A DNA stretch of 64,000 nt from Acidobacteriaceae bacterium (GTDB taxonomy: Bacteria; Acidobacteriota; Terriglobia; Terriglobales; Acidobacteriaceae). Made by a program: the position numbers and the translations under genes. The stretch covers positions 9,686-73,685 of the forward strand of contig JBMFGX010000014.1 in assembly GCA_049977105.1 (NCBI GenBank), given 5' to 3'. How positions within the stretch are numbered: the stretch's first letter is position 1; each line of letters begins with the position of its first letter. Below are positions 2,735 to 59,404 of this stretch, piece after piece. Under the pieces are notes generated by a model. It made no database searches, was not told where the DNA came from, and saw nothing but the letters and a program-made list of their open reading frames with translations.

Positions 2735-3020
2735 GATCTGCCCACAGGCTCTCAGGGTCTGAGCAGCGACGGAGCGAAGAGGGAAGATCTTGGTCTATCC
2801 TCATCGTCGCCCCGTCAGCACCCGGAATCTGCTTCTGGGGCGAGATGTAGGAGCGGCCTGCCTCGCAGAACCACGGGCTCTGTGGCTTGGAGTGCTGTGT
2901 GTCCGGGCAGGCTATTGAACCGTGGGTGCTCAAGATCAGGATCAAGCGGAACCGGCCGGCAGCGCGGGCGACAGCAGGTTGCAGCCGTTGGCCGGGGATG
3001 CGGACCGAGCAGAGCCAAGG

Positions 3021-30454: not shown

Positions 30455-31192
30455 TTGGCATGGCAATTGCTATCTCTTCAGCAGATAGAACTTATGGAGA
30501 AACCAATGACCAGATGCCAATTTTGCTCGCACACCGGAAAGCACGCCTTCTGTAGTCTTGGCCAGCAGTCCCGCGCCTTCTTTGAATCCCATTCGGTCAG
30601 CATGGAATATCCCCGCGGCACGGTCCTGTTTCGTGAAGGCGACCGTACCGAGGCAGTGTATGTGCTCTGCTCCGGGAAGATAAAGATCTCTACCAGTTCC
30701 AAAGAAGGCCGCACCATGATCCTGCGCATCGCGGATGCAGGGGACGTTCTGGGCATGAGCGCGGCGCTGACCGACGGAGAACATGAAGTCACCGCGGAAT
30801 CGCTTGAGCCATGCGTCGCTCGCGTTCTGCCCGTCAAGCATCTTGCCACCATGTTGCAGGCCTATGGCGATGCCAGCATCGGCGCGGCGAAGTCTCTGGC
30901 GCAGGACTATCGCGCCGCGTTTGATGAAGCGCGGCTGGTCGCTCTGCCTGGATCTCCAGCCGCGCGACTGGCGCGATTGATCCTGGACTGGACCGACGAG
31001 GCCAGGAAGAACTCATCCGCAGTCATCACGATGCCGTTGACCCATGAAGAACTCGCCTCCATGACCGCAACCACCAGAGAGACCGTCACCCGCACCCTCA
31101 GCCGCTTTCGCAAGGACAAGATCATTGCGATTCGAGGCGTGTCGCTCACCGTGCTCCAGCCCACCATGCTCGAAGAGCTCTCGGCTTGCTAA
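30455..31192 (+). CDS. Crp/Fnr family transcriptional regulator 1 (Cys-rich, FNR-like sensor; CRP-like recognition helix)
   Basis: cNMP-binding-fold core (GTVLFREGD...VYVLCSGKIKI...GRTMILRI..GDVLG). HTH LTHEELASMTATTRETVTRTLSRF. N-terminal C-x2-C-x8-C (CQFCSHTGKHAFC) plus a Cys in LEPCVARV. Start is either the TTG at 30455 (5 nt after aaggag) or a downstream ATG at 30494/30506. Confidence 0.88.
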   Translation: MAWQLLSLQQIELMEKPMTRCQFCSHTGKHAFCSLGQQSRAFFESHSVSMEYPRGTVLFREGDRTEAVYVLCSGKIKISTSSKEGRTMILRIADAGDVLGMSAALTDGEHEVTAESLEPCVARVLPVKHLATMLQAYGDASIGAAKSLAQDYRAAFDEARLVALPGSPAARLARLILDWTDEARKNSSAVITMPLTHEELASMTATTRETVTRTLSRFRKDKIIAIRGVSLTVLQPTMLEELSAC

Positions 31193-33305: not shown

Positions 33306-34496
33306 ATGACAGAAGTTTCGAGCCGTCTCTTTGTATCCGGTAATGGAGCAGTCCAGGTGGTCCCTCCGCCTGCCCATCCCTCCGCTCGCTCTACACACGG
33401 TTCTGGTCTGCGCGATTTTTCCCAGGACCCCATGCTGGTCTACTGGGAGATGACGCAGGCCTGCGCTCTAGCCTGCCGCCACTGCCGCGCAGAAGCCGTC
33501 TCCACGCCCCACCCTCAGGAGTTGACGAATACCGAAAGCCGAGAGCTGCTGCGCCAGATTGCGTCCTTCAACAAGCCCTTGCCGCAACTGATCATGACCG
33601 GCGGCGATCCCTTGCGCCGCGCCGATCTGTATGACCTGATTGACTACGCGCATGATTTGGGCATCACCGTCTCCATTACGCCCAGCGCCACCGGAGAGCT
33701 GACCTTTGAGGCTCTGGCAAAACTGAAGGCGCACGGTATTGAGAGCCTCGGCCTTAGCCTGGACGGCTCCAGCGCGCTTCGCCATGAGGCCGTGCGCGGC
33801 GTGGAGGGCTGTTTCGATTGGACCATCCGCGCCGCTGAGGGCGCAGCAAAACTGGGAATGCCGATTCAGGTGAATACCCTGGTCTCCGAGGAGACCGCCG
33901 ATGACCTGCCGGCCATCTATGAACTCCTCAAGTCCATCCAGGTGATGCGCTGGAGCCTCTTCTTCCTGATCGCCGTGGGCCGCGGCAAAACCTTGCAGCC
34001 TGTCTCTCCGGAGCGCGGCGAAGAGCTGATGAATTGGATCTATGATCTGGCGCGCGTCGGCCCGTTCGCCATCAAAACAACGGAAGCTCCCTCCTATCGC
34101 CGCGTTGCCTTGAACCGCATGCGCCAGGAGGGAATGCATGCCCGCGAGATTGAGCAGACGCCAGTCTATCGCGGATTCGAGGTCCGCGATGGACACGGCA
34201 TCATGTTCGTCTCCAACCAGGGCGATATCTATCCCGCGGGCTTTTTACCGCTGGCCGTCGGCAACGTGCGCACCGACCATCTCGTGGACATCTATCGCAA
34301 CTCCCCCATGTTCCGCGCACTGCACAATCCCAGCGAGTTCAAAGGCAAGTGCGGAGAATGCGAGTATCGCGCCCTCTGCGGCGGCTCGCGCGCACGGGCG
34401 TTTGCGTATACAGGAGATGCCCTGGCCAGCGATCCCTTCTGCCCCTACGAGCCCAAGGCCCACGCTGTATCCCCATCTCCCGCTATGGCAAGCTGA
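33306..34496 (+). CDS. radical SAM enzyme with C-terminal SPASM/twitch-type Cys cluster (NirJ/AhbD-like architecture)
   Basis: CxxxCxxC in WEMTQACALACRHCRAEA, and a GGDPL motif. The C-terminus KGKCGECEYRALCGGSRARAF...DPFCPY is typical of SPASM domains. Confidence 0.85.
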   Translation: MTEVSSRLFVSGNGAVQVVPPPAHPSARSTHGSGLRDFSQDPMLVYWEMTQACALACRHCRAEAVSTPHPQELTNTESRELLRQIASFNKPLPQLIMTGGDPLRRADLYDLIDYAHDLGITVSITPSATGELTFEALAKLKAHGIESLGLSLDGSSALRHEAVRGVEGCFDWTIRAAEGAAKLGMPIQVNTLVSEETADDLPAIYELLKSIQVMRWSLFFLIAVGRGKTLQPVSPERGEELMNWIYDLARVGPFAIKTTEAPSYRRVALNRMRQEGMHAREIEQTPVYRGFEVRDGHGIMFVSNQGDIYPAGFLPLAVGNVRTDHLVDIYRNSPMFRALHNPSEFKGKCGECEYRALCGGSRARAFAYTGDALASDPFCPYEPKAHAVSPSPAMAS

Positions 34497-35017: not shown

Positions 35018-35197
35018 ATGAGACGTATGTTCGTTTGTTTGGCATTGACCGCGTCTCTGACCGCAATGTGGGGGATCGGCCCGGTGTCGGCCGCCGCTCA
35101 GAATGGAAAGCAAGCCAGCGCCGTGGAGACAACGGGACCGGTAGGGAGTCCGGCGTCTCGTGTACTTCTTCCACCGTCGTCGGACCAACCGGGCTAA
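35018..35197 (+). CDS. candidate small secreted protein (59 aa)
   Basis: ggaga RBS 8 nt before the ATG. Sec-type signal MRRMFVCLALTASLTAMWGIGPVSAAAQ is followed by a ~31-aa Pro/Ser/Gly-rich tail. Several overlapping ORFs exist in this GC-rich stretch, so the call is weak. Confidence 0.3.
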   Translation: MRRMFVCLALTASLTAMWGIGPVSAAAQNGKQASAVETTGPVGSPASRVLLPPSSDQPG

Positions 35198-35328
35198 CGG
35201 AGCCACCTTCGGGCCTCACCGCGCCCAGAAACTTCCATGCCAACCTGCTGGTGCTCTCCATGCATTACGAGTTCTAACTGGTTAGCACGGTGCTTCAAAT
35301 CAATCAGATGGATCGACGAGGAGATAAC

Positions 35329-35652
35329 ATGGCATCGAAAGTCAAGTCAGGTATCTTGTTGGTTGCTTTCCTGGCAACCTGTGCGTCAACACCCTTCGCT
35401 CAGAACACAGCAGCGGCAATCTATCAATCGAAATGTCAAATGTGTCACGGCGCGGATGGTACTGGGAACACCCCCGCCGGAAAGGCAATGAAGGTCGGCT
35501 CCTTCAAATCACCGACTCTAATCAAAGCTTCAGATGCGGAGTTGTTCGCAGAGACGAAGAATGGAAAGGGACGGATGCCGGCTTACGCGAGCAGGCTGTC
35601 TGACGCTCAGATCCATGCTGTGGTCGCCTACATCCGCACGCTCCAAAAATAA
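35329..35652 (+). CDS. monohaem class I cytochrome c (periplasmic)
   Basis: ggag RBS, signal peptide, single CQMCH haem motif and a distal Met (GRMPAY). Start placed at ATG 35329. Confidence 0.88.
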   Translation: MASKVKSGILLVAFLATCASTPFAQNTAAAIYQSKCQMCHGADGTGNTPAGKAMKVGSFKSPTLIKASDAELFAETKNGKGRMPAYASRLSDAQIHAVVAYIRTLQK

Positions 35653-36138
35653 AAAGGACGGTGACGCAGGCTGAGAATGGCAGCCTGCGCCATCTCTCGA
35701 TCTGTAGCTTCATCGCGCCTGGGGTTGCAGTGTGGTCGGGTTGCGGAATCTATCACCCCAACCACCCCGTCTGCTCTAACTCCAGCTCCTTCAGGAAGCC
35801 AGTGACTGAAGTTGGCTCCCTTCAACCAAAGGTTGTCAAAGGGAGCTCAGTCGTCGTAACCAGGTAAGGCAGCGGTCAGTCTGCGCTGCTACGTCAGCAG
35901 ACTGACCGGATGCCCATAGGAAACCTGTAGCCGTTCGATCACGCTCTCCAGGAGCGAAGATCGTGAAGACGTAGTTGCCCTTTTCTCTTCCGCTAGCGTC
36001 ATCTTTCTGCAAGGATCACGCTAGCAAGTCCCTCATGAGCTGTGTGATTGTATCCGTTACTATTTAGAAAGCAGAATGGGTGCGGAAGCGTGGCGCCCAT
36101 CAAGCGTTCCAGAAAAAATAACTAACTAAGGAGCAATC

Positions 36139-36447
36139 ATGAAGCGTACTCTGACTCTCGCAGCCACTTCTCTCTTCGCCCTGTCCGTTCTTGCACCTGC
36201 CTTTGCTCAAAACTCAGGCGCCGCAATCTATAAATCGAAGTGCCAGATGTGCCATGAAGCGGATGGTACCGGCATGGCCGCCATGCACGTTCCTTCCTTC
36301 AAATCCCCACAACTGAAGAGTGAATCCACCGCATCGCTCATCAACGATGTGATGAAGGGCAAGGCGATGATGCCCGCATTCGGAAGCAAGCTGAGCGCCA
36401 GTCAGGTCAAGGAGGTTGTGGCGTATATCCGCACTCTCCAAAAATAG
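36139..36447 (+). CDS. monohaem class I cytochrome c (paralogue)
   Basis: aaggag RBS, signal peptide, CQMCH and MMPAF. Colinear with the 35329 gene (AAIY.SKCQMCH..DGTG ... VVAYIRTLQK). Confidence 0.9.
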   Translation: MKRTLTLAATSLFALSVLAPAFAQNSGAAIYKSKCQMCHEADGTGMAAMHVPSFKSPQLKSESTASLINDVMKGKAMMPAFGSKLSASQVKEVVAYIRTLQK

Positions 36448-36471
36448 TTGCTAACTGAAAAGAGGTTAGTC

Positions 36472-37890
36472 ATGTCTCTGTCGGGTAGTGCACGGAGCGG
36501 GGGGGCGATCCCCCCCCTCCCCAGCAGAAAATCCCTCGCGAATCTGTTTTTCTCGAAGCGGCCGTTCTCGAAGAGGCTAATCTTAGAGACGCAAGAGCCT
36601 GTCAAGACACTCCCAACGTCTACGCCAGCCAACCGTTCCTCCCTTATCGGACCCGGTCGGGCTCAAATCCCGGCACAATCGTCCAGTCCGCCCCAGCGAG
36701 CCTTCCTTCCTTCCTCGCTCCTCTCTCGGCTCTCCCGATATCGACGCACCCTCGCCGCCCCCTTGCTCTCCGCAGGCTGTGTCCTGTTCCTGCTTGTTCT
36801 GCCGGCCACTCCGGCGCGTGCGCAGACCGACTGCCTGGCCTGTCACGGCGATGTGACCATGACGGACGCCGCCGGCCATAACGTCGGTGTGGATGCCACA
36901 AAGTTTCATGCTGGAATCCACGGCTCTCTGCACTGCACAGACTGCCACAGCGACATCAAAGGCTACCCGCATCCGGCCCAGCCCAGTAAAGTGGACTGCG
37001 GGACCTGCCACACGGCTGAAGCCGCTGATCTGGTCGGCAGCGTGCATCAACATGCCGGCGCGCAGCCCTGCCTCAGTTGCCACGGCAATCCCCACTACAT
37101 TCTGCCCAAAAGCAGTCCCCAATCTTCGGTCTATCCGCTCAACGTCCCGGCCACGTGTGGCAAGTGCCACGGCAACGCCCAGTTCGCCAAACAGCACCAT
37201 CTGACCAACGTCTATCCGGAGTATATCGACTCCATCCATGGGTTCGCTGTCAGCAAAGAGGGCCTGTTGGTGGCAGCAAATTGCGCCAGTTGTCACGGAT
37301 CGCATCACATCCTTAGCCCAACGGACCCACAGAGCCCCACCTACCGCGCCAACATCCCACAAACCTGCGGGAAATGTCACGCCGGCATTCTCACAAGATA
37401 CATGGCGGGCATCCACGGGCAGCAGTTGAAAGCTGGGAACCCGAATGCTCCCGTCTGCACAGACTGCCACACAGCCCATGGCATCGCGGCACCCAACAGC
37501 GCGCTCTCCACAGATGCCTGCGGCCGTTGCCACCAGGCCCAACTCACCACCTATCGCGATACCTTCCACTCCAAGGTCAGCCATCTTGGGGCCTACGTGG
37601 AGGTCGCACGCTGCTCGGACTGCCACGGCGAGCACAATATCCTTCCTCCTTCCGATCCACTCTCTACCGTCAACCCCAGGAATCTGATCAAGACCTGTGG
37701 CAAGTGCCATCAGGGCGCAAATGCCGGCTTCGTTCAATATCAACCGCACGCCAATGACAGGAGTTGGCGCCAGAGCCCGGTGCTCTTCTCCATTCACCTG
37801 TTCATGGTGATATTGCTAAGCAGCGTGCTCACCTTCTTCTTAATTCACAGCCTGTTGTGGCTGATACGCTCCTTGATCGACAGGGCGTAA
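36472..37890 (+). CDS. undecahaem c-type cytochrome with C-terminal membrane anchor
   Basis: 11 CxxCH motifs (CLACH, CTDCH, CGTCH, CLSCH, CGKCH, CASCH, CGKCH, CTDCH, CGRCH, CSDCH, CGKCH). A hydrophobic segment LAAPLLSAGCVLFLLVLPATPARAQ comes after ~95 N-terminal residues. C-terminal TM VLFSIHLFMVILLSSVLTFFLIHSLLWLI. Start is ambiguous: TTG 36448 or ATG 36472 (preceded by aagagg). Confidence 0.85.
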   Translation: MSLSGSARSGGAIPPLPSRKSLANLFFSKRPFSKRLILETQEPVKTLPTSTPANRSSLIGPGRAQIPAQSSSPPQRAFLPSSLLSRLSRYRRTLAAPLLSAGCVLFLLVLPATPARAQTDCLACHGDVTMTDAAGHNVGVDATKFHAGIHGSLHCTDCHSDIKGYPHPAQPSKVDCGTCHTAEAADLVGSVHQHAGAQPCLSCHGNPHYILPKSSPQSSVYPLNVPATCGKCHGNAQFAKQHHLTNVYPEYIDSIHGFAVSKEGLLVAANCASCHGSHHILSPTDPQSPTYRANIPQTCGKCHAGILTRYMAGIHGQQLKAGNPNAPVCTDCHTAHGIAAPNSALSTDACGRCHQAQLTTYRDTFHSKVSHLGAYVEVARCSDCHGEHNILPPSDPLSTVNPRNLIKTCGKCHQGANAGFVQYQPHANDRSWRQSPVLFSIHLFMVILLSSVLTFFLIHSLLWLIRSLIDRA

Positions 37891-37916
37891 GACTCGTCAG
37901 CGAAAGGAGCCAGATT

Positions 37917-38906
37917 ATGCCAGACCAAGCCATGCCAAAACCTGTAACGCCAGCGCAGTCGCAGCATCAGGTAACCGGGGACGGTCCCTCCGGTCGCCCC
38001 GGCGCGGGCCAAACCCAACCTGCCGCCCAGCCGACCCCAGCCCAGCAAACTACGGCGCAGCAAGCCACTGCCGGCCCAGCCAAACAGCCGGAAGAGCGGT
38101 ACTTCCAGCGCTTTACGGTCAAGCAGCGGTGGTCCCACGCCATCATGCTCACCACGTTTCTGGGGCTGGCCGCAACCGGTCTCAGCATCCTCTTCAGCAG
38201 CAATGCCTGGGCCCAGCGATTCGCGGCTCTGGTGGGCGGCTTTGACGCCATCCTCTTCCTGCACAAACTCTGTGCCGTCACCCTCACCGCAGTATTTCTT
38301 TATCACGTGTACGACCTTATGGTGCGGATCTTCATCAAAAAAGAGAAGGGTATCCTTTGGGGGCCAACCTCCATGGTGCCCAATCTCAAGGATCTCAAAC
38401 ATATGATCGGTAACTTCCGCTGGTTCCTGGGATTGGGACCCAAGCCAACCGCCGAGCGCTATGCCTACTGGGAGAAGTTTGACTACTGGGCCGTGTTCTG
38501 GGGGATGGTCATCATCGGCTCTTCAGGCTACGTCATGTGGTTCGGTCCCTTCTTCGGCAGGTTCCTGCCCGGCTGGGCGTTGAACGCCGTCCAGATCGTA
38601 CATGGTGAAGAGGCACTGCTCGCCATTACCTTTATCTTCTCCATCCACTTCTTCAACTCTCACGGGCGGCCAGACTGCTTCCCGATGGATACGACGATAT
38701 TTACCGGCGTTGCCTCCGAGGAGGAGTTCAAGCAACGGCATCTGGACGAGTACCAGCGTCTGGCAGCCGAGGGCAAGCTGGAGGAAAAGCTTACGGTCAA
38801 ACCACAACCGGGGTTTGTCACCTTTGCGAAGGTGATGGGTTTCACCGCTGTCTTCATCGGTCTCGTGTTATTCGTCTTAACAGTGCGTGCCTACTTCCGG
38901 ATTTAG
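37917..38906 (+). CDS. membrane b-type cytochrome-like subunit (FdnI/HydC/PhsC-like)
   Basis: aaaggag RBS, with the start 27 nt after the undecahaem stop. About five TM helices with conserved His (WSHAIML, LFLHKL, FLYHVY, IVHGEEALL..FSIHFFNSH). Gln/Ala/Pro-rich N-terminus. Start moved to 37917. Confidence 0.7.
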   Translation: MPDQAMPKPVTPAQSQHQVTGDGPSGRPGAGQTQPAAQPTPAQQTTAQQATAGPAKQPEERYFQRFTVKQRWSHAIMLTTFLGLAATGLSILFSSNAWAQRFAALVGGFDAILFLHKLCAVTLTAVFLYHVYDLMVRIFIKKEKGILWGPTSMVPNLKDLKHMIGNFRWFLGLGPKPTAERYAYWEKFDYWAVFWGMVIIGSSGYVMWFGPFFGRFLPGWALNAVQIVHGEEALLAITFIFSIHFFNSHGRPDCFPMDTTIFTGVASEEEFKQRHLDEYQRLAAEGKLEEKLTVKPQPGFVTFAKVMGFTAVFIGLVLFVLTVRAYFRI

Positions 38907-38983
38907 GCATGAGCCCCATTGCTTGGCTTCGTCCCACTCCTTGAGTTCGCTGAGGCGCAAAATTCAATTACGAGGAGTTCCTA

Positions 38984-40420
38984 GTGCCCATCATCGATCA
39001 CATCGTGAAACATTGGCTTAGACCTTTCTTTTTTCTGGGAAGGAACAAGCTCAGTCTAGTCGGCGGGGCGATTGCTTCCGCATCCGCCTTCGTTCTGATC
39101 GGTTTCTGGATGGTGAGCATCTTTGGGCACGGCGGCTCATCCAACCCCTACCTCGGCCTCATCCTCTTCTTCGTTTTGCCGACGTTCTTCATCCTGGGCC
39201 TCATTGTGATCCCCATCGGGATCATGCGGCAGCGGCGCAAGTTGCTCGCCAAGGGCGAGCTTCCCTCGCTCTATCCAGACGTCGACTTCAACGAGCCGAT
39301 GTTTCGTCACGCCCTCAACTTTGTCGTTGTCGCCACCGTCATCAACTTTACAATCGTCGGCGTTGCCAGCTATCGCGGCGTCGCCTACATGGATTCGCCC
39401 AACTTCTGCGGCACGGCTTGCCATGTTGCCATGCAGCCCCAGTGGGACGCCTACCAGGCTGGTCCCCACTCTCATGTGCAATGCGTGGAGTGCCACGTGG
39501 GCAGTGGGTTTGACAACTATGTTCACGCCAAGATGGAAGGAACCAAGCAGCTCGTCGAGGTCACCTTTGACACCTACCCGCGCCCCATCCTGGCGCCGCT
39601 CGATGTGCTTCGCCCCGCCCGCGCAACCTGCGAAAAATGTCACAACCCCAGACGCTTCCTCGGTGACCGCCTGCTGGTCCTGACGGAATTCGCCAGCGAT
39701 GCGCAGAACTCCATGACCAAGACCGTTCTGGTGCTTCATCTCGGCGGCGTGGACTCTCTGGACCAGTTCAGTGGAATCCATGGTCACCATCTCAATCACA
39801 TTGAGTATGTTGCCACCGACGACATGGACCAGAACATCGTCTCCGTTTCTACCCCCGGACCCAACGGCCAGACCATCGAGTATCGATCGGACTGGAAGGG
39901 CCCCGTCAAAGGCGTCCGTCGCGTGATGGATTGCATGGACTGCCACAACATGGCGGCGCACAGTTATTCCACTCCAGGGGAGGCGATCGACGCAGTGATG
40001 GCCGATGGTACTCCCTCACCCTCTCTCCCCTATGTGCGTAAGGAGGGCATGGAACTTATCCAGGGTAAGTACGCTTCGCAGGCGGCGGCCGCCGTCGCCA
40101 TCAGGAACGGTCTTGAGGAGTTCTATCGCTCCCAGTACCCAGCCATCTTTAGCAGCCGGCACGATCAGATCGAGGCAGCAGCCCAGGAACTCATCGTCAT
40201 CTATGACCGGAACGTCTTCCCGGACATGCACGTAACCTGGGGAACCTACCCGAACAACATCGGGCACATTGACTTCCCCGGCTGCTTCCGCTGCCATGAC
40301 GGCAATCACACCACCAAGGACGGCAGCAAGACTATCACCAACGACTGTTCTGCCTGCCACAACCTTCTCGACGTCAGCGATCCCAATCCCAAGATCCTGA
40401 GCGAGGTCGGCTTCCAATAG
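38984..40420 (+). CDS. 3-TM NapC/NirT-like multihaem quinol dehydrogenase candidate (ImcH-like architecture)
   Basis: Three N-terminal TM helices, then a NapC/NirT-like block SPNFCGTACHVAM...HSHVQCVECHVG...K..GTKQL...CEKCHNPRRF. Further motifs CMDCH, CFRCH and CSACH. Total is five CxxCH plus one CX3CH (CGTACH). Confidence 0.8.
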   Translation: MPIIDHIVKHWLRPFFFLGRNKLSLVGGAIASASAFVLIGFWMVSIFGHGGSSNPYLGLILFFVLPTFFILGLIVIPIGIMRQRRKLLAKGELPSLYPDVDFNEPMFRHALNFVVVATVINFTIVGVASYRGVAYMDSPNFCGTACHVAMQPQWDAYQAGPHSHVQCVECHVGSGFDNYVHAKMEGTKQLVEVTFDTYPRPILAPLDVLRPARATCEKCHNPRRFLGDRLLVLTEFASDAQNSMTKTVLVLHLGGVDSLDQFSGIHGHHLNHIEYVATDDMDQNIVSVSTPGPNGQTIEYRSDWKGPVKGVRRVMDCMDCHNMAAHSYSTPGEAIDAVMADGTPSPSLPYVRKEGMELIQGKYASQAAAAVAIRNGLEEFYRSQYPAIFSSRHDQIEAAAQELIVIYDRNVFPDMHVTWGTYPNNIGHIDFPGCFRCHDGNHTTKDGSKTITNDCSACHNLLDVSDPNPKILSEVGFQ

Positions 40421-41431: not shown

Positions 41432-44400
41432 CTACCATGTGCGCCCAATGTACACATCGAACGTCCGAAGCACGCCATTCAGGTTCGGGTTCCAGTGGTC
41501 CCTATAGCTTCCGTAGTACAGGACGAACCCTCCCTCGAATTTGTAGGGCAGATGATAGTAAGCCTTGCCCTGACCAAGCCACTGTGGGACCTGCACTGCT
41601 GAAACCTGGGTCGAACCAAGCTGGATATTGTCCAGTGCCTGCTGGAACATGCTGGGATCAAACAAACCTTGCTGAATCAGCGATGCATTGCCCATGCCGG
41701 CGGGATCATTGGGATTCAGATTGGGCCGGAAGCTGCTGCTTGACGCATTGTGAGTAAGCCTTAAATCAAGGCCCATCCGCTGCTTGAGCGTATAGGTGGA
41801 ATCGCCCCAATAGACCTGGCTGAGCTGCTTGTAGGGTACGTTCGGTTCATCGAGAATATAGTTGACCGAGCTATCGTTCTGGAACGCCATGTAACTGGTC
41901 AGGTTGTCCTGTTGGTAAGAGTATCCAGCGGCAACATCCCACGCCCGCGCCGCCTGGAAGGAGACGTTGGCCGCCTCGGTATAGAAGCGGTCTCGCCGCT
42001 GAAAGACCGGGGGAAGTCCGGAGATATCCTGTCCAAACCCCTGATACGTCGGATTAGGAGTATCTGGAAGCGGATCGGCCGGGAAACTGTTCTGCACCAG
42101 GATACTGGTGTTGTTCACGAAGGTCAGCCGCGGCGTGGGGGTGAACCAGAGATTGGCAAAGGTTCGATTCTGGTCCTCAGGAACAATCAGAAATCCTGGT
42201 TGTTGCGTCTTTGTCCATACGTCGCCGGCCACCACATTCAGCAGATGATTGCGATAACCCAGATCCAAAGACCCTCGATTGCTGGTGGAAGACGGAATGA
42301 CATACTGCAGATCCGTGTTATCCATGGAGTAAATCTGCGGCCACAGGAACGAATTGGACCGCGTAATTCCACTTCGCCGGTAGGACGCATCGGCAAACAA
42401 TCCGGCCGGCAGTTCGGCCTCAATCTTCAGCCCCTCCCAATGCCTGTGGAATGAAACGTTCCCGTACAAGCTGTAGTATGGCGTAAAGTCGTTGATCAGG
42501 TTCTGCTGATGGTAATCGGCGATCAGATGGATCCGCTTCATGGCCAGCCAGTTTAGCGTCTCGTCGGAATCGAACCAGTTTTGCGGATTCTTCGTGTAGG
42601 TGTTCACCAGGCGGGTATAACTCACGTGCCCGTCAAAGCTGAACACGTCCGATGGTGTCACAGTGAGGTTTACCGTGTCTGCGACAGTCCGGTCAGGAGA
42701 CGGGATATCGAGATAGTAGTTCCCTGCAGGGAAATCGGTCGGGGCAGGCCCGGATGGGGGGGGATTTATCGGCGAGAAGCCCTCGTTCTCCGGTGTAGAC
42801 GGACCTTCATACGTGGCTGTGGGGAAGATCAGACGATCATTGAAGCTGCTGATCTCGTGTTGGTAGGTAAGTTGTAGCAGGTTCTGCAAATGGTAAGTGA
42901 AGCCTCCACCGAAGTTCCGAGTGGTGTAGTTGACCGGTTGGAATTTGGATACCTGATGGCACAAGTCGCCGCAGGTGGTATTCACTCCGTCTACGTACAC
43001 CGCCGGCGTCGCATTTTCGTCCAGGTAGGTGAGTTGCGTATTCCCCACCCTGGCCTGCATATTTCCGTTCGCAAACAGAAGAACAGGCAACTTCGGTAAC
43101 TGGACCTGCACAGAGCCGTTGCCCAATCTTCTGGTAACCCCAAAGGTGGCGTTAGGCGGAATCAGATCGATAACGGCGCCTGGAAGGCCAAAATCCGCCG
43201 GGGAGAGTTGCGCAAGGTACGATTTGTAATGATCCTGCTCTTGCACCAGACTGCGCAGGTCCAGCCCGGCCTTCATCCATTTGGCAATGGTCAGTTGCGT
43301 CTGCATCGAGTAGTCGACCCCGGTCAGCACCCTGCTCCGTGATACCAGCGTCAGATGGTTCTTGGGCGAGACATAGGATGTCATGCTGACGCTTCCAGCC
43401 GACTGTTGCAAACTGTCATACTCTCCTACACGGCTCAGAAATCCTGTACCGTCAAGAAACCGATAGGAGCCGGAAGTGATGGAGGATGTTGCTAACGGGA
43501 TGCCACCTCCCGCTGTCACCTCAGCCGCGCCGGCACCCGGATTCCCAGCGCTCGGATTCCCAACGCCGGGATTCCCGGCGCCCAGCCCGCGCTGCAGGGT
43601 GCGCGCATGGAGATTGGTCACCAATCCCATCAGGCCGCCTGCGGTAGCAATCGTGGCTGCTGCCGCGTCTGGAGTCGCATTGGAAAAGGCCTCACGTCCC
43701 GCGGGGCCAGGCCCTGAGGCGTCATAGGGCAAGCCGAGCGGTCCCTTGTCAATGAATCTGCTCCCACCGCTCAGCGTGGCTACATCCGTGCCATGAATCG
43801 AGTCGTGACAATTTGTGCAACGATCATCCAACGGCAGATTGGCGCCATTATGGTGACCCGCGTGGCACTGCAAACACAGTGCCGGTTCGCTCAGCGTCAA
43901 CAGATTTGTATTCGGTGAGCCATGCGGCAAATGGCAGTTCAGGCATGATTCCGTCACCGAAGGATGCTGATAGGCAAACGGCCCGCGATACTGCGCGTGG
44001 CAGGTCAAGCAGAGTTCGTTCACGTTGGCTGTCTTCAGGTTATTTCCCGCGTTTCCGCCATGCGCATCGTGGCAGTCCATGCAACTCATCTTGCCCTCGC
44101 CCAGGGGATGGTGGTACGGCATGCTGAGCTGCGCCCTCTCCGCCTCATGGCATCTCAGGCAGGCTGCGTTCGTCACGGAGCGCGCTTCCACCAAGGCGTT
44201 GGTCTCTGGCGAGATCGAGGAAACTTGCTGAGCTCCACGCGTGGTGGTATCGAACCGCACCATATGGCTCTGGGCCGTACTCGCACCGCCGGGATGGATC
44301 TCATGGCAATCGATGCAGCGAACCCCGCTTGCAGCATGAGCCCCGCTCTCCCAGTGTCTGGTGCTTTTGTCCTGGGCATGGCAGGTCAGACAGACACCGT

Positions 44401-44722
44401 TCGCGTTCGCCGAGGTACTCTTCTCGAATCGAAAGATCTTGGAAGTGTCTCCTCCGCCGGCTACGTGAAGACTTCCGTTACCATGGCAACTTTCACACTT
44501 CACTCCTTGCTGAGCGTGATAGGCATGCTGGAAATTCCTGGCGATATCCGCATGGCACGCGGCGCAGGTTTCAGATCCGACGGGTTTTGCCCCTGGAATC
44601 CTTAGAAACTCTGCAAAGGACGCGATACTCTGGGTGGATTGCTTGGCCGCGGACGGAGAGATGCAAACAAACATTGCAAGTCCCGTTACCACCAGAATCG
44701 ATAGGAAAGATGAGCGCCGCAT
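41432..44722 (-). CDS. fusion protein: MtrA/DmsE-type decahaem cytochrome c + Gly/Asn/Pro linker + predicted outer-membrane beta-barrel (MtrB/PioB-sized)
   Basis: One uninterrupted 1096-codon ORF. GGAG RBS, then a signal peptide. Ten CxxCH within aa ~53-306, colinear with S. oneidensis MtrA as I recall it (CLTCHAQYRGPFAYQHPSVTESCLNCHLPHGSPNTNLL..PALCLQCHA...CTNCHDSIHG versus [47 protein letters not shown]...CLNCHSQVHG). aa ~416-1096 have no long hydrophobic helices, are rich in Y/N/T/S/G/Q with alternating patterns, and end ...FDVYIGRTW. Confidence 0.85.
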   Translation of the reverse strand: MRRSSFLSILVVTGLAMFVCISPSAAKQSTQSIASFAEFLRIPGAKPVGSETCAACHADIARNFQHAYHAQQGVKCESCHGNGSLHVAGGGDTSKIFRFEKSTSANANGVCLTCHAQDKSTRHWESGAHAASGVRCIDCHEIHPGGASTAQSHMVRFDTTTRGAQQVSSISPETNALVEARSVTNAACLRCHEAERAQLSMPYHHPLGEGKMSCMDCHDAHGGNAGNNLKTANVNELCLTCHAQYRGPFAYQHPSVTESCLNCHLPHGSPNTNLLTLSEPALCLQCHAGHHNGANLPLDDRCTNCHDSIHGTDVATLSGGSRFIDKGPLGLPYDASGPGPAGREAFSNATPDAAAATIATAGGLMGLVTNLHARTLQRGLGAGNPGVGNPSAGNPGAGAAEVTAGGGIPLATSSITSGSYRFLDGTGFLSRVGEYDSLQQSAGSVSMTSYVSPKNHLTLVSRSRVLTGVDYSMQTQLTIAKWMKAGLDLRSLVQEQDHYKSYLAQLSPADFGLPGAVIDLIPPNATFGVTRRLGNGSVQVQLPKLPVLLFANGNMQARVGNTQLTYLDENATPAVYVDGVNTTCGDLCHQVSKFQPVNYTTRNFGGGFTYHLQNLLQLTYQHEISSFNDRLIFPTATYEGPSTPENEGFSPINPPPSGPAPTDFPAGNYYLDIPSPDRTVADTVNLTVTPSDVFSFDGHVSYTRLVNTYTKNPQNWFDSDETLNWLAMKRIHLIADYHQQNLINDFTPYYSLYGNVSFHRHWEGLKIEAELPAGLFADASYRRSGITRSNSFLWPQIYSMDNTDLQYVIPSSTSNRGSLDLGYRNHLLNVVAGDVWTKTQQPGFLIVPEDQNRTFANLWFTPTPRLTFVNNTSILVQNSFPADPLPDTPNPTYQGFGQDISGLPPVFQRRDRFYTEAANVSFQAARAWDVAAGYSYQQDNLTSYMAFQNDSSVNYILDEPNVPYKQLSQVYWGDSTYTLKQRMGLDLRLTHNASSSSFRPNLNPNDPAGMGNASLIQQGLFDPSMFQQALDNIQLGSTQVSAVQVPQWLGQGKAYYHLPYKFEGGFVLYYGSYRDHWNPNLNGVLRTFDVYIGRTW
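41435..43477 (-). other. predicted beta-barrel (porin-like) domain of the fusion ORF
   Basis: About 680 aa with beta-rich composition and a C-terminal aromatic residue. The size is comparable to MtrB/PioB porins. The assignment rests on composition and context only. Confidence 0.55.
43539..43583 (-). repeat. 15-bp tandem repeat x3 encoding the (G-x-G-N-P) linker
   Basis: The + strand core ggattccc recurs at 43539, 43554 and 43569. It encodes GAGNPGVGNPSAGNPGAG between the cytochrome and barrel domains. Confidence 0.8.
43778..44575 (-). other. decahaem (MtrA/DmsE-like) domain of the fusion ORF
   Basis: aa ~50-315 carry all ten canonical CxxCH motifs. Confidence 0.85.
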
Positions 44723-44842
44723 AATCGTTCTCCTGCAAAAGCCATTTGGAAACGCGAATCGCCGGAACGCTTTGTGTTTTCCACGAGCGAATCCCTATTT
44801 GCTGCGTTACGCAAGAGTATGTTCTCGCCCAAGCAGGAAGTC

Positions 44843-44858
44843 AGTGATGACCGTCACC
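44843..44858. promoter_or_regulatory. CRP-type box AGTGATGACCGTCACC
   Basis: GTGA-N6-TCAC core, 121-136 bp upstream of the fusion-gene start codon at 44722. Confidence 0.4.
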
Positions 44859-45782
44859 CGCATCACGCCGCTGGGCAATATTCAGCCAGAGAAACCCATG
44901 GAGCCTGCAGAAAATAATTATTCGTAAGTTGCGAATTTGTTGAAGTATCGAATCGCATCTGATGCACGCATGGCTGAGTAGCCTTCCATTCAAAATCCTG
45001 CGTAGAAAACGAGTGTCACACAGAAAGAATTCAGGCGTAGCCGTCTAAGTAGGGCCATGTATGCGCTCAAATGTTCCAGTGGATGCGGCAATCCGAAGCA
45101 TTGGGTGACTTCTTTGGTAGAGCTTGTCCTGCGCCACTAACGCCATCGTCAGGCCGAAAATGAATCGCCCTTTGGGTAAGGCACTTTTCAGCGTTCAGGC
45201 TGGAGTTGTTCAGAGCGTTCGAATTATCTCAAAGACGCACGCATTAGTTCTCTCGTCAAATCTCATGCAATCGGGATGACGGACTGCCGGCGTCAGGCGT
45301 CGCGTCGCTGGTTCGTGGTGCGCGTGCGGAATTTGGCTGCAAGCGTCCCTACCAGGACTGGGAAGTGATCACGGGGCAAAGCTCTGCGTCTCCGGCTCGG
45401 ATCACCGATGCAGGTGAGTGTGCTTGCCGCATCCGGTGCCTGCAAGGCTGTCCATTACGCCAACGCTCGTTCCAAATGGATCGCGCAGAAGGAATCTTCG
45501 CAAGGGAAGATGCCGCATGGAGGCCGACTTCTGTGCGTGTGGGAGCATCGCTGCGCGAGCGCAGATGGAGCGGAGCAGGAGACGATCCAGCCGCAAAGCC
45601 AGAGCCGACCGCGGGACCATCCGGAGCGGAAGCGCAAGATCACTGAGCCTGCCAGGCTTTTCGCCGACGCCCAGCCGCACTGCTCTGCCGTGGCGTCAGC
45701 GGCAATCGTCAAGTGCGGTCGCAGCACAACCTGCGGGCCCTCTGCACACAGTCATTGAAGACTTCACTTCTGCATCTGTCTC

Positions 45783-46700
45783 CTAAAACCCAAGGTGATG
45801 CAGGTAGAAGACGACGCATCCAGCCGCAAGACAGTAGATGCCGAACCAGTACCAACGGCCATTCTCCAGCCAGGAACTCAGCCAGCGCAGCGCGGCCAGC
45901 CCTGCCAGAAAGGAGAAGAGCATGCCGAGCAGCGCGGCCATCACGCCGGCGTGCAGGTCAACCTGCGCTGCGCCCACGGGGGCCGCGTGGCTGGCCTTCA
46001 ACAGCCGCAGCACCTCCCGCGCAATCGCCGGTGGGGTGAGGATGACGGCCAGAGCAAAGCTGAATCGCTCGGCGCGCTGCCGGTTGGCCCCGGTCAACAG
46101 GCCGACCGAGATGGTCGCTCCAGAGCGCGAGAAGCCGCGGAAGGGAAGGCATAGCCCCTGAATCGCGCCCATCCATCCCGCCTGAGTGAAGGTTACGTTC
46201 TCTCCGGAGAGCGCAAGGGACCGCTCATAGGCTGGGCGCTCATTCCTGGCGCTGTGGGCCGCAGCGCGCTCCCGCAGGCCAGAGATCAGGATGAGGAGCC
46301 CGGCGGCCAACAGCGCCGGCGCCACCAGATCCAGCCGCGAAAACAGCATCTCAATCTCGCCCTTGGAGTGCCCCTTGAAGGCCGTGTGTTCAATGATCTC
46401 GATGATCGGATACCCTACCACCGCCGTCAGGAAGGTGGCCCAGAACGCTCGCACCACAAAACGCTGCATGGCATGCTTGGTCAAAAAATACGCGTGCTTC
46501 CACTGCGCCCAGAAGTACACGATCACGGAGAACATGGTTCCGGTATGGAGCATCACCAGCACCAGGGTCATCTCCGGCGAGGACGGATTCAGCCCCAGCA
46601 GCTTTTCCGCAACCACGACATGCGCGGAGCTGGAGACCGGAAGAAGCTCGGCAAGGCCCTGAACAACAGCCAGGATCAGTACTTTCAGAAGGGATGGCAT
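45783..46700 (-). CDS. uppP: undecaprenyl-diphosphate phosphatase
   Basis: The N-terminus LILAVVQGLAELLPVSSSAHVVV and the later SRSGATI motif are typical of BacA/UppP. Confidence 0.92.
   Translation of the reverse strand: MPSLLKVLILAVVQGLAELLPVSSSAHVVVAEKLLGLNPSSPEMTLVLVMLHTGTMFSVIVYFWAQWKHAYFLTKHAMQRFVVRAFWATFLTAVVGYPIIEIIEHTAFKGHSKGEIEMLFSRLDLVAPALLAAGLLILISGLRERAAAHSARNERPAYERSLALSGENVTFTQAGWMGAIQGLCLPFRGFSRSGATISVGLLTGANRQRAERFSFALAVILTPPAIAREVLRLLKASHAAPVGAAQVDLHAGVMAALLGMLFSFLAGLAALRWLSSWLENGRWYWFGIYCLAAGCVVFYLHHLGF

Positions 46701-53555: not shown

Positions 53556-53559
<4 letters not shown>
52543..53559 (-). CDS. dihydroorotate dehydrogenase-like TIM-barrel flavoprotein (probably not a true DHOD)
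   Basis: Class-1 PyrD-like N-terminus (LGMKLSSPVVVSSTPLS) and GGV..AED near the C-terminus. The catalytic loop reads AIELNTFALVTDG where I recall class-1 enzymes having IELNLSCPN. Its start overlaps the nifJ stop (ATGA). Confidence 0.7.
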
Positions 53560-57209
<3,650 letters not shown>

Positions 57210-58226
57210 TCCACGGCGCGGCTTGTGGAAGGTTCGGCCGCTAGCCTAAGTCTCCAGACTCCGACGCCAAAACGCAGTGACGCAAGGCACAGAAGGAGCG
57301 CTATAGAACCTGCCACAAACCCACATCCCCCTCCCGCATGCAGATCCGCCTCCTCTGCACAAAGAGCCCACTGACCCGTCACCACGCAGATCCTCTCCCA
57401 GAGCTCCGCACAGCGGATTCCCGCCAACTCCTGCCGGCCGGAGTGACTGCGGAGAACCCCAAAACTCCATACGCCACGCTCACCCAGCATCCACCCGGCA
57501 GATTTCACGCCAACCTCGCTCTCTTCTGTCCGGAACCAGCCAGGGACGATCGCCCATTTGCCCGGCCGTGCAGGTTCACCCCAATTCCAGACCATCCGCC
57601 AGACGGCGCGGTAACCGAACGCTGCACCCGTTGGCCTTGGTATGGTTTCAAGGGGCTGGAGCAAGGCTTAGGAAGACTACAACCGCACCCGCAGCCCAAT
57701 GGCGGAGTCCACAAGCGTGATGCGCTTCCTAGACATCCAGTACCTTGTCCTCTAACATCAAGAAGGCAAGGTTCTGCGCCCTTCTGCTTGCGTTTGCGTC
57801 AGGCGAAGAGACAGCGTCCGGCCAGTACCTCCACCGTGTGATGTCATAACAGAGTCAGAAGGCGAACTTGCGACGGCAATTCAGTTCGTCATCCTTCTCT
57901 GCTCGGGAGCGATGTGTGCCTCAATCGGCCTATCACCAGAACCGCTATACACCGCACGCCCCTACGGAGTTTGGCAGGCCCATGCAGCTCGAAATCTCCT
58001 CGGAGCCAGGCAAACACAGCACACTGCCTCCTCCATCTCTCGACAAAGATTCCTTCGCACCCGGTCGTTCCTGGCCGGAGTCAGGCTTCCTTCCCGCTGC
58101 ATTTCATCCGTCAGGCACAAAACCCTTTACCGCCGGGCAGTTCATCCTGCCCAGAATGGACCAGTGCTCATGCAAAGTAGCCTTGTGACACGCACGACAG
58201 TAGGTAACGGAACAGCCGGAGAATCC

Positions 58227-58984: not shown

Positions 58985-59404
58985 GTTTCACTACCCTCTA
59001 TCTTTCTACAGTGTGACCAGAGGTAAGCAATGGTTAGCCATTGCGTCAGCTCGGTCTGCCAGGTAGATGTCAAATCGATAAGGGATGGAGAACTGTACGC
59101 GCTAGAGAGCCGCTCCGCTGACACGGAGTCCTTCCGGCTTTTTCCCCGCTTGCTCAGAGAACGCGCCGCGCATTCTCAACTCGTTGGGAAAGGTCGCGGT
59201 CGTCGCTAGAACGGCCTGTCACGGTCCACCAACGACGGAAGCAGACATCCGTAGAGTCTTCCATCGCAAGCATCCGTTCCTCACCGGCGCGCAGCGCTGG
59301 TCCGGCAAGCGACTCCTTTCTCCTTATCCATTCCGCATCTGCCTGCAAAAGGGGTAACCCGCATGGCTTGAGCTCGCAGCCTCGTGTTCGTCTCAGGAGA
59401 GGGT

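Follow-up and report, generated by a model that had tools for sequence, protein, structure and literature searches.

To our knowledge, all bacteria studied so far make the ten-haem wire and its barrel in the outer membrane as separate proteins. This is the arrangement of MtrAB of Shewanella (MtrCAB, PDB 6R2Q), MtoAB and PioAB, where a decahaem cytochrome of the DmsE/MtrA family accompanies an MtrB/PioB-superfamily barrel of 26 strands. The pair GSU2203/GSU2204 of Geobacter and its relatives (NF041028 and NF041027), itself uncharacterised as far as we know, also comprises a decahaem cytochrome and a barrel, and there the barrel itself holds a CxxCH-type motif. The GSU2204-type "CXXCH-containing (seleno)protein" has been listed as an MtrB/PioB-family barrel (PMC13188914), and the Geobacter-type genes are separate and often followed by ABC-transporter genes (locus L084; PMC11492766). 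Cyc2 and Cyc572 of iron oxidisers, with a c-type cytochrome and an outer-membrane barrel in one chain and the haem on the barrel protein, are, as far as we know, the sole natural examples of a cytochrome c fused to such a barrel; Cyc2 has one N-terminal haem in the pore of a barrel of about 16-18 strands. Type Va autotransporters have a signal peptide, an N-terminal domain ending at the outer mouth, a linker that crosses the lumen and a C-terminal barrel.

Here we describe, in a window of 64,000 nucleotides from a member of the Acidobacteriaceae, a single gene whose product combines a DmsE/MtrA-family decahaem and a predicted MtrB/PioB-superfamily barrel, in the order A then B. What is known is the two-protein MtrAB kind; what is new is that the two parts are joined in one chain, by a tether of 61-95 aa among its homologues, and that the host belongs to the Acidobacteriota, unlike those of MtrAB, MtoAB and PioAB. 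A fusion of this type was not described in the literature that we searched, where the monohaem Cyc2 is the sole fusion on record, in agreement with an earlier note on this DNA that could name no characterised example. Taken as a whole, the evidence is best explained, with a probability of about 0.7, if this one polypeptide is a complete MtrAB-type electron conduit across the outer membrane.

The fused gene and its decahaem module

According to the ORF list and the translation, the gene is one uninterrupted reading frame of 3,291 nt and 1,096 aa on the minus strand, exactly at 41432..44722; the earlier note had placed it there but left the strand unstated. It starts with ATG, preceded by AGGAG about 8 nt upstream, and its stop codon (TAG/TGA) lies at 41432-41434. 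After removal of the signal peptide the computed mass is about 116 kDa for the apoprotein and about 123 kDa with 11 haems. The order of the domains is a signal peptide, ten CxxCH motifs (aa 53-306), an Ala/Ser/Gly/Pro linker of about 85 aa and a C-terminal domain of about 690 aa, with the following features:

41432..44722, minus strand: whole gene, fused decahaem cytochrome and predicted 26-strand outer-membrane barrel (ORF list, translation, homologues)
44642..44722, minus strand: Sec-type signal peptide, aa 1-27 (hydropathy, AXA-like SAA site)
43742..44641, minus strand: MtrA/DmsE-type decahaem module, aa 28-327 (motifs, TIGR03508, match to 6R2Q_A)
43496..43741, minus strand: linker, aa 328-409 (Ala/Ser/Gly/Pro-rich, (GxGNP)x3)
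41435..43495, minus strand: predicted MtrB/PioB-superfamily 26-strand beta-barrel, aa 410-1096 (AlphaFold2, Foldseek, hhalign)
42956..42973, minus strand: C584-G-D-L-C588-H589, CX3CH haem-c attachment motif (predicted junction of loop L4 and strand 8)
41435..41464, minus strand: C-terminus TFDVYIGRTW, beta-signal-like and closing with an aromatic residue (last strand 1083-1095 in the AlphaFold2 model)

The signal peptide (MRRSSFLSILVVTGLAMFVCISPSAA, followed by K) reaches a 19-aa Kyte-Doolittle maximum of 2.13 and is the sole stretch above 1.6 in the fused protein, the linker peaking at 1.37. This bears out both the signal peptide proposed for aa 1-27 and the proposed absence of a hydrophobic helix from the C-terminal part. 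The predicted signal peptidase site is the AXA-like SAA, with the cleavage position read from the sequence, and inspection of the signal peptide gave no good lipobox. The motif scan placed the ten CxxCH, as had been counted before, at aa 53, 76, 111, 136, 188, 214, 238, 260, 283 and 302. In the alignment of homologues twelve further His are invariant in this module, which closes at the junction with the conserved motif GGSRFIDKG. Residues ~20-315 scored 196.9 bits on TIGR03508 (DmsE-family decahaem; cut-off 192.2), the profile comparison that the earlier note had proposed, and the module matched solved Shewanella MtrA, 6R2Q_A, with an E of 2.1e-34. The MtrA-like residues flanking the motifs, which had been recognised before, are present in YRGPFAYQHPSVTESCLNCHLPHGSPNTNLL and align with the solved MtrA residue by residue. 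Judged by these sequence comparisons, the N-terminal part is shown to be a DmsE/MtrA-family decahaem module. We rejected equivalog status with GSU2203/GSU2204, considering that both scores (226.9 bits on NF041028, cut-off 325; 35.8 bits, E 4e-9, on NF041027, cut-off 350) are far under the cut-offs.

The barrel domain and its haem-type motif

Both AlphaFold2 runs, in answer to the strand count that had been proposed, gave 26 long strands for the C-terminal domain (pLDDT 70-96), with only 2-5 residues in the turns on the periplasmic side and long loops outside. The best structural match in the PDB was MtrB, 6R2Q_B (Foldseek E 2.4e-17 and 1.8e-16; TM 0.64-0.68 on MtrB), which leads the next matches, 22-strand TonB-dependent receptors at about 1e-8, by eight to nine orders of magnitude. 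A short helix at aa 429-435 matches the helix cap described in loop 1-2 of MtrB (PMC7198977). Identity to MtrB is only about 9%, and of the comparisons proposed with the MtrB/PioB profiles the direct one failed, the barrel scoring on neither PF11854 nor TIGR03509, while hhalign of barrels of this type with PF11854-positive barrels gave a full-length match (probability 100%, E 9.8e-65, 617 columns). The hit on NF041027 was weak; this model gives 146 bits for P0212/L084, a split relative that also passes PF11854. The protein ends in YIGRTW, as noted earlier, and a Y-[VIL]-G-[RK]-[ST]-[WF] terminus was kept in all 120 homologues retrieved. Together, the models and alignments show the C-terminal part as a predicted 26-strand barrel of the MtrB/PioB superfamily with a typical outer-membrane protein C-terminus.

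The motif scan also revealed a Cys pair that the earlier note had overlooked. This CX3CH lies between strands 7 and 8 of the AlphaFold2 model (547-568 and 589-612). C584, C588 and H589 are invariant in 106/106 aligned fused homologues and belong to only 15 invariant columns among fused and free-standing barrels of 19-56% identity, and the spacing at this position varies among CxxCH, CX3CH and CX4CH. Unlike this barrel, MtrB and the haem-less Nitrospirota barrels have no such outer-loop site; in the alignment with haem-less MtrB/PioB-type barrels, the motif is absent and falls in an insertion. A GSU2204-type barrel can hold selenocysteine, whereas the protein of the window has no Sec codon. Cyc2, with its single haem, differs from the ten-haem wire, barrel-loop haem motif and 26 strands predicted here, and we detected no sequence relationship to Cyc2 or Cyc572. 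The C-x(2-4)-CH of the predicted fourth extracellular loop is in our view a likely candidate for an eleventh, exit haem; H622 is a candidate distal ligand, which in the model appears too far along the strands. As far as sequence conservation tells, the barrel is more than a passive sheath and carries its own haem-binding motif.

Conservation and origin of the fusion

The barrel query gave 505 matches, the best 120 of which were mostly 1,020-1,155 aa long. In assemblies from NCBI, JGI, ENA and Logan we found more than 100 full-length fused homologues, from independent assemblies of Acidobacteriota/Terriglobia in soil and peat; exactly ten CxxCH, together with the barrel motif, occur in all 105 full-length homologues retrieved, and the same single ORF was found at 22 independent genome loci. 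In the tree the fused proteins form a single clade with a bootstrap support of 100/100, nested among relatives that have two adjacent genes in the same order. In these split pairs (L028-L030, L034, L082, L084) the decahaem gene precedes the barrel gene by 0-18 nt, and each part is encoded separately with its own signal peptide; the halves of the L082 pair are 48% (decahaem) and 39% (barrel) identical to those of the window protein. These data show that the fusion derives from an adjacent mtrA-like/mtrB-like pair still present in related Acidobacteriota and that it has been maintained throughout a whole clade. The earlier note had asked whether the fusion recurs in related genomes and whether a stop or frameshift is hidden in the linker; since it is conserved and defines a clade, the latter is excluded.

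Genomic neighbourhood

Convergent with the fused gene lies an intact electron-transfer operon, preceded by a gene remnant:

35104..35274, plus strand: truncated copy of another outer-membrane protein (874 aa) that retains its last ~75 aa (tblastn)
35290..40420, plus strand: intact periplasmic/inner-membrane electron-transfer operon (Pfam, CxxCH counts)
35290..35652, plus strand: monohaem cytochrome c (Pfam, CxxCH count)
36139..36447, plus strand: second monohaem cytochrome c (Pfam, CxxCH count)
36448..37890, plus strand: c7-like cytochrome with 11 CxxCH (Pfam, CxxCH count)
37764..38906, plus strand: cytochrome b561-like protein (Pfam)
38984..40420, plus strand: NapC/NirT-like cytochrome (Pfam, CxxCH count)

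The remnant is 47% identical to a Silvibacterium outer-membrane protein (L052; tblastn E 6e-10), only over query residues 800-874; in other Acidobacteria this 874-aa protein stands after an unfused MtrA-like decahaem. The operon genes are 50-63% identical to those downstream of such unfused clusters (L042, L047, L049, L052, L071, L072). Genes for PFOR, acetate kinase and a Crp/Fnr protein are also near the fused gene. This context speaks for an electron conduit; against it counts that no neighbouring genes were conserved across the fused loci. The fused gene resembles MtoAB and PioAB in having no gene for an MtrC-like partner in its vicinity; at 19/21 fused loci there was no second multihaem ORF within 7 kb, which supports the self-sufficiency of the fused protein.

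Proposed mechanism and alternative explanations

The linker, whose repeats GAGNP-GVGNP-SAGNP had been noted before and are present in the translation, has a weakly hydrophobic core, AATIATAGGLMGLVTNL. In 101 fused homologues it is 61-95 aa long (median 84, none below 61), with 20% A, 15% S, 13% G and 10% P and a median 19-aa hydropathy maximum of 1.03; both AlphaFold2 models give the linker a pLDDT of about 30-40. The earlier note called such a tether topologically compatible with MtrAB assembly, but this passes over a difficulty. Within the MtrCAB structure, MtrA has its C-terminus (residues 284-306, haem A10) at the cell surface (PMC7198977), so the linker must return through the lumen to the periplasmic strand 1. 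Given the narrow solvent channel of MtrAB, about 5 Å in width (PMC7198977), this threading may be sterically hard, which counts against our explanation. A neutral account of the linker length could be read-through of the old C-terminal tail, the intergenic spacer and the signal peptide. Because AlphaFold2, run without haem, gave pLDDT below 50 for aa 218-408, docking of the haem domain in the lumen is taken only from the homology to MtrAB.

The protein would be exported and receive its haems in the periplasm, and during folding by BAM the barrel would then close around the cytochrome tethered to it. As in MtrAB, the chain of ten haems would span the membrane within the lumen, and since its last haem would lie at the outer opening, the tether of small residues would descend the lumen to strand 1 in an autotransporter-like topology. 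The barrel-borne eleventh haem could accept electrons from haem 10 and present them outside, as a counterpart of haem 5 of MtrC in Shewanella, in which case a separate surface cytochrome would not be needed. The fusion would set a 1:1 stoichiometry and guarantee that the barrel never folds empty.

Other explanations have to be weighed. In formal terms the chain has the type Va order: first a signal peptide, then an N-terminal passenger, a linker of ~85 aa in which a helix is predicted (aa 351-379) and last the barrel. The topology argument already puts the passenger C-terminus at the outer mouth; the barrel could then be mainly a translocator and anchor for a decahaem exposed on the cell surface, with the linker filling the lumen, and electrons would have to come to this cytochrome either through the barrel haem or by some other path. 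We regard this as unlikely, taking into account that the barrel has 26 strands, is homologous to MtrB and has no PF03797 match, in contrast to the unrelated 12-strand barrel and exported cofactor-free passenger of autotransporters, to which the resemblance is topological only. The passenger, moreover, is homologous to MtrA, which resides inside MtrB, and the free-standing relatives are two proteins with their own signal peptides, as in ordinary MtrAB. We know of no case in which a decahaem cytochrome is exported through a barrel after folding and haem loading. Just as improbable is a polyprotein, in which the fusion has no purpose beyond joint translation and export and the linker is cut in the periplasm, leaving an ordinary two-chain MtrAB-like complex. 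Cleavage would spare the threading, the linker is poorly conserved, of low complexity and disordered in both models, and its weakly hydrophobic AxGAAGGxxGM core looks like a degenerate signal peptide inherited from the once separate barrel gene. But the linker has no recognisable protease or signal-peptidase context, its median hydrophobicity is well under that of the true signal peptide, an internal segment would be wrongly oriented for signal peptidase I, and the constant minimum of 61 aa suggests that it is retained for a reason.

The threading problem also disappears if the decahaem is tethered outside the barrel, as a periplasmic electron-collecting antenna touching the periplasmic mouth of a haem-bearing channel or receptor, with its C-terminus and strand 1 both periplasmic; the absence of a confident docking in AlphaFold2 agrees with this. 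Yet a lone haem in an outer loop cannot span a membrane of ~40 Å from the periplasm, MtrB-homologous 26-strand barrels have no known role beyond sheathing MtrA-type cytochromes (PMC7198977), and short linkers would be tolerated here, yet the shortest one observed has 61 aa, so that we give it a slightly smaller chance still. That an assembly error or pseudogene joins ordinary mtrA-like and mtrB-like genes is effectively refuted by the same continuous ORF, with its ten CxxCH and GGSRFIDKG junction, in the independent assemblies and fused loci above; the short matches that look unfused are gene-calling truncations. The single stop or frameshift that breaks each of the relatives L014, L018 and L086 does show errors or decay in the family, in the opposite direction.

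Within the preferred reading, that of a complete conduit in one chain, we lean weakly towards an outward electron flow, to Fe(III) or to humic or particulate organic matter, over an inward one from Fe(II). One gene may thus by itself move electrons across the outer membrane.

The Fused Gene and Its Conservation

The decahaem cytochrome and the barrel are encoded together by one gene.

41432..44722, minus strand: fused decahaem-barrel gene, 1,096 aa

As the earlier note had claimed, this is a single uninterrupted ORF; its ATG start is preceded by AGGAG, and a plus-strand reading of the same interval was dropped for its many stops. There are exactly ten CxxCH motifs, spanning aa 53-306, and the MtrA-like flanking pattern described in that note was found and aligned with solved MtrA. 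The expected low-complexity linker, which is Ala/Ser/Gly/Pro-rich and contains GAGNP-GVGNP-SAGNP, follows the haem region, and the protein ends in ...YIGRTW. No hydrophobic helix had been seen in the C-terminal part; the N-terminus is the sole strongly hydrophobic segment of the protein. The motif inventory of that note was incomplete, since C584-GDL-C588-H589 (CX3CH) within the barrel had been overlooked.

When the barrel alone was used as query against 5.8 billion proteins, 505 matches were obtained. Among the best 120 of these, 105 were 1,020-1,155 aa long, and each of these full-length homologues ended in an aromatic residue and carried ten CxxCH motifs. The survey of genomes found the fusion conserved as a single ORF in 22 loci of species-representative genomes. 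Those examined among them came from MAGs of Acidobacteriota or Terriglobia, some of which derive from peat (fen, palsa and SPRUCE samples). L002 ("Acidobacteria bacterium FK2.bin45") is nearest, with 95% identity. Because the single-ORF fusion recurs in homologues and in 22 genome loci, an assembly artefact as its source is excluded.

Several matches resembled unfused forms. The short proteins P0007, P0012, P0032, P0056, P0059 and P0060 (700-810 aa) were rejected as natural split forms: barrel matches of this size are gene-calling truncations, and P0059 lies inside a 1,103-aa ORF at locus L001. The homologue P0129 turned out to be fused as well, its gene being disrupted by one frameshift. Loci L022-L035, scored as fused by tblastn, were mostly adjacent split genes on ORF audit. 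The loci L014 (~10555), L018 (~2330-2750) and L086 (~2960-3004) hold members of the fused clade whose ORF is interrupted once, by a stop or a frameshift located within the haem domain or linker or close to them; these interruptions are sequencing errors or recent pseudogenes, and there the gene callers report a barrel without signal peptide.

The N-Terminal Decahaem Module

The N-terminal module, with its ten CxxCH motifs within about 300 aa, passed the NCBIfam model of DmsE-family decahaem cytochromes, TIGR03508, with 196.9 bits, just over the cut-off of 192.2 (E 4e-58). A PDB sequence search with the fused protein retrieved 6R2Q chain A, from the Mtr complex of Shewanella baltica (E 2.1e-34, stretches aa 11-144 and 184-299); this chain is MtrA despite another label in the file. 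By cut-off, motifs and MtrA homology, the module is assigned to the DmsE/MtrA decahaem family. It also scored 226.9 bits with NF041028, the model of GSU2203-family decahaems, below the cut-off of 325, and is thus a relative of that family that stands outside it. In 106 sequences there were twelve further invariant histidines (H66, 69, 86, 129, 143, 205, 221, 253, 267, 290, 291 and 310), which would be enough for bis-His ligation of the ten haems.

The C-Terminal Barrel

Direct assignment of the barrel to a family failed, as Pfam, NCBIfam and the PDB sequence profile returned nothing or a weak match. There was no Pfam family match even at E<=10, and no MtrB/PioB match, TIGR03509 included, in NCBIfam at E<=1. 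The weak match was to NF041027 ("GSU2204 family CXXCH-containing (seleno)protein"), with 34.9-35.8 bits (E 4e-9) over aa 413-647 only, far from its curated cut-off of 350. This family is put equal to an MtrB/PioB-family barrel in a recent review table (PMC13188914), and the conserved haem-binding motif within GSU2204-type barrels is also found in the window barrel. The assignment was therefore based on fold search and profile-profile comparison.

The fold was settled by structure prediction. AlphaFold2, run with the alignment of 105 homologues, modelled aa 410-1095 as a barrel with 26 long strands (pLDDT 70-90), with periplasmic turns of 2-5 residues and long outer loops. A second run, limited to linker and barrel, reproduced the 26 strands at pLDDT 85-96. 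The model has a short helix in loop 1-2 (aa 429-435), in common with MtrB, where a helix cap in that loop has been described (PMC7198977). In Foldseek searches of the PDB, MtrB (6r2q_B) came first for both models, with E 2.4e-17 and 1.8e-16 and TM values, normalised on MtrB, of 0.68 and 0.64; the runners-up were 22-strand TonB-dependent receptors at about 1e-8. The outcome that the earlier note had held to be fatal, a C-terminal part with no barrel prediction and no similarity to outer-membrane proteins, did not arise.

Profile homology led to the same place. The gathering threshold of PF11854 (23) was passed by the relatives P0212 (35.1 bits) and those at loci L039, L043 and L046 (30-36 bits), while P0125 reached 20.9 bits; haem-less barrels that adjoin decahaems in Nitrospirota loci pass this Pfam MtrB_PioB threshold. 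With hhalign, the window-barrel family (alignment A2) matched the PF11854-positive barrels (alignment A4) with a probability of 100% (E 9.8e-65, 617 columns), and pairwise BLASTP gave E 1e-7 over about 600 aa. A direct match to PF11854 or TIGR03509 was not obtained, but the homology to PF11854-positive barrels extends over the full length. Considering that fold search and profile homology agree, the window barrel belongs to the MtrB/PioB superfamily, where it has diverged beyond the reach of current family HMMs. Barrel and decahaem are linked genetically, being fused here and adjacent genes in split relatives; in the AlphaFold2 model the pLDDT of the haem domain was <50.

A Haem Motif within the Barrel

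The motif overlooked before lies between strands 7 and 8 of the AlphaFold2 model.

42956..42973, minus strand: CGDLCH, a CX3CH haem-type motif (aa 584-589) in predicted extracellular loop 4

Outside the ten CxxCH motifs, C584 and C588 are the sole cysteines of the mature protein. C584, C588 and H589 are invariant across the fused clade, and in an alignment extended to free-standing barrels with as little as 19% identity they make up 3 of only 15 invariant columns. Fused and split members alike show CxxCH, CX3CH or CX4CH at this position of the alignment; since the spacing varies while the position is fixed, the motif is taken for a real haem-attachment site and not for a chance pair of cysteines. 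It lies in an inserted segment that the haem-less MtrB/PioB-type barrels lack. Its predicted place in extracellular loop 4, counting from a periplasmic N-terminus, is supported by the consistently short even-numbered connections of the model. The nearly invariant H622 was considered as distal ligand of the candidate eleventh haem; located on strand 9, it looks too far from H589 in the model.

Origin of the Fusion

In distant relatives (32-39% identity) the decahaem and barrel genes are adjacent, in the same order and 0-18 nt apart, and the barrel of these split pairs carries its own signal peptide.

L028-L030, L034, L082: split pairs of Acidobacteriota
L084: split pair in Geobacter-like surroundings that include an ABC substrate-binding gene

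At L082 the decahaem is 48% identical to the N-terminal module of the window protein and the barrel 39% identical to its C-terminal module. The fused clade of the window, with P0129 counted in, was monophyletic in 100/100 bootstraps (neighbour-joining, barrel domains). By these comparisons, the fused gene can be traced to a split pair. The split decahaems of Nitrospirota (L036) and of the Geobacter-like L084 begin with a lipoprotein-type signal (…LAGC/AAGC), whereas the acidobacterial fused protein has an ordinary signal peptide.

A second, distant fused lineage is represented by P0138 (965 aa, L085 6001..8898) and P0149 (1,016 aa), with 29-33% identity in the barrel and linkers of about 57-62 aa. 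Split members separate these proteins from the window's clade in 76-92% of replicates and, as they stand between both fused groups, a second, independent fusion is suggested. The barrel homologue P0209 (783 aa), which has the conserved CxxCH motif (CATCH) in its barrel, carries an N-terminal class-I monohaem cytochrome c domain (CAVCH) and no decahaem; with this domain content it would add a third type to the cytochrome-barrel fusions of the superfamily.

Genomic Neighbourhood

Fused genes usually stand alone: no other multihaem ORF was found within 7 kb in 19 of 21 loci, and no neighbour family was conserved across the fused loci examined. The window is an exception.

30455..31192: second Crp-like ORF
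33306..34496: radical-SAM gene
35104..35274, plus strand: remnant of an 874-aa outer-membrane protein, last ~75 codons (…APRNFHANLLVLSMHYEF)
35290..40420, plus strand: intact electron-transfer operon, converging on the fused gene (Pfam)
45783..46700, minus strand: bacA/uppP, upstream of the fused gene
53556..57209, minus strand: pyruvate:ferredoxin oxidoreductase
57912..58973, plus strand: Crp/Fnr-type regulator
59384..60319, plus strand: Usp gene
60806..62008, plus strand: acetate kinase

Two of the operon's products are monohaem cytochromes c. The others are a c7-like cytochrome with 11 CxxCH motifs and a TM helix at its C-terminus, a protein resembling cytochrome b561, and a NapC/NirT-like protein with 5 haems. 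Genes 50-63% identical to these occur in other Acidobacteria, where they come after an unfused MtrA-like decahaem and an outer-membrane protein of 874 aa that is unrelated to the window barrel. The operon normally belongs to that unfused type of cluster and is orphaned in the window, where the unfused decahaem and the first 800 codons of the outer-membrane protein are absent and the radical-SAM gene lies upstream of the remnant instead. The remnant results from sequence being deleted or rearranged, or from a join made during assembly. As only this remnant is left beside the operon, the fused conduit may have taken over from the lost outer-membrane module. The 874-aa Silvibacterium-type protein was rejected as a relative of the window barrel, with no significant similarity and no Pfam match.

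The nearby pyruvate:ferredoxin oxidoreductase, acetate kinase, two Crp/Fnr-type regulators and Usp suggest an anaerobic lifestyle. Crp/Fnr-type genes also stand beside unfused decahaem clusters in 15 other loci. In the ~1 kb upstream of the fused gene (44723..45782) no ORF had a family match, and its GC content (0.558) is close to that of the fused gene. A regulatory RNA or promoter was sought there and rejected, as Rfam had no match anywhere in the window and promoter-like sites occurred at chance level.

Topology and Proposed Mechanism

In MtrCAB, the part of MtrA exposed at the cell surface consists of residues 284-306 and haem A10 only (PMC7198977); in the window protein, aa ~289-311 are aligned with this stretch. 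If the cytochrome is seated as in MtrA, its C-terminal end would be at the outer mouth; since strand 1 starts at the periplasmic rim, the tether would have to pass back along the lumen, as an autotransporter's linker crosses its barrel. The earlier note had called the tethered arrangement topologically compatible with the known assembly, but that account was too easy in leaving out this return path. The likeness to type Va autotransporters ends there, as these have a 12-strand translocator (PF03797), whereas the window barrel has 26 strands and no PF03797 match in Pfam.

In 101 homologues the tether has 61-95 aa (median 84), is rich in small residues and is never short. This length fits threading; it fits equally an inherited old tail, spacer and signal peptide. 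The sole conserved, weakly hydrophobic stretch of the linker, aa ~353-380 (43580..43660, minus strand; consensus AxGAAGGxxGM in alignment A1), has a 19-aa KD of 1.37 in the window protein, with a family median of 1.03, and may be the decayed signal peptide of an ancestral free-standing barrel gene. The linker pLDDT of 30-40 makes the models uninformative on the path of the tether.

The data show what the domains are, that the fusion is conserved, that it derives from a split pair and that the barrel has a haem motif. In the mechanism proposed here we further infer that the cytochrome inserts in the lumen, that the tether is threaded, what haem 11 does and which way electrons flow. The fused protein would be exported by Sec, its eleven haems would be attached in the periplasm, and BAM would fold the barrel round the tethered cytochrome. 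Electrons from periplasmic or quinol-linked cytochromes would travel along the ten haems, reach the loop haem and leave to an external acceptor, or else take the opposite course. The joint reading is that of a self-sufficient one-gene, 11-haem outer-membrane wire, with a barrel round its own tethered cytochrome, the tether running back through the lumen and the loop haem as an exit or entry replacing any surface cytochrome; we hold it tentatively, at a probability of about 0.4.

Significance

Extracellular electron transfer has its paradigm in porin-cytochrome conduits and, to our knowledge, every characterised multihaem conduit of this kind is multi-subunit. A natural single-chain conduit would mean that sheath and wire can be one protein. 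It raises a question of biogenesis, how BAM closes 26 strands round a tethered holo-cytochrome and a returning linker, and the fusion is a natural test of MtrA templating the folding of MtrB. The barrel-borne haem suggests a way to do without MtrC-type surface cytochromes. For engineering, the appeal of a one-gene conduit is its fixed 1:1 stoichiometry, given that balancing the expression of mtrCAB is a known bottleneck.

The earlier note knew of no characterised decahaem-barrel fusion, and our searches of literature accessible without subscription likewise found fused cytochrome-porins described only as monohaem Cyc2/Cyc572. Cyc2 has a single N-terminal haem and a small porin (~16-18 strands), whereas the window protein has 10+1 haem motifs and 26 strands, so that the likeness would be an analogy of principle only. 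Surveys of Mtr clusters report Acidobacteria only with separate mtrCAB genes (PMC8805035), and a 2026 preprint on Acidobacteriota of peat deals with porin-cytochrome clusters made up of several genes, without mention of any fusion. The database names of the fused family are generic ("cytochrome c3 family protein", "predicted CXXCH cytochrome"), and surveys that seek a separate porin gene beside the cytochrome will miss it. What is new here is that a conduit of MtrAB type is made as one chain, whose barrel bears an eleventh haem site, and that it is common in a phylum which is ecologically dominant. The fused family is common in Terriglobia of peat, bog, fen and forest-soil metagenomes. In the joint reading the fusion seems to have originated two times or more; it is found widely among those Acidobacteriota that are dominant in acidic soils and peat, and could be a main route by which humic or particulate organic matter or iron is respired there.
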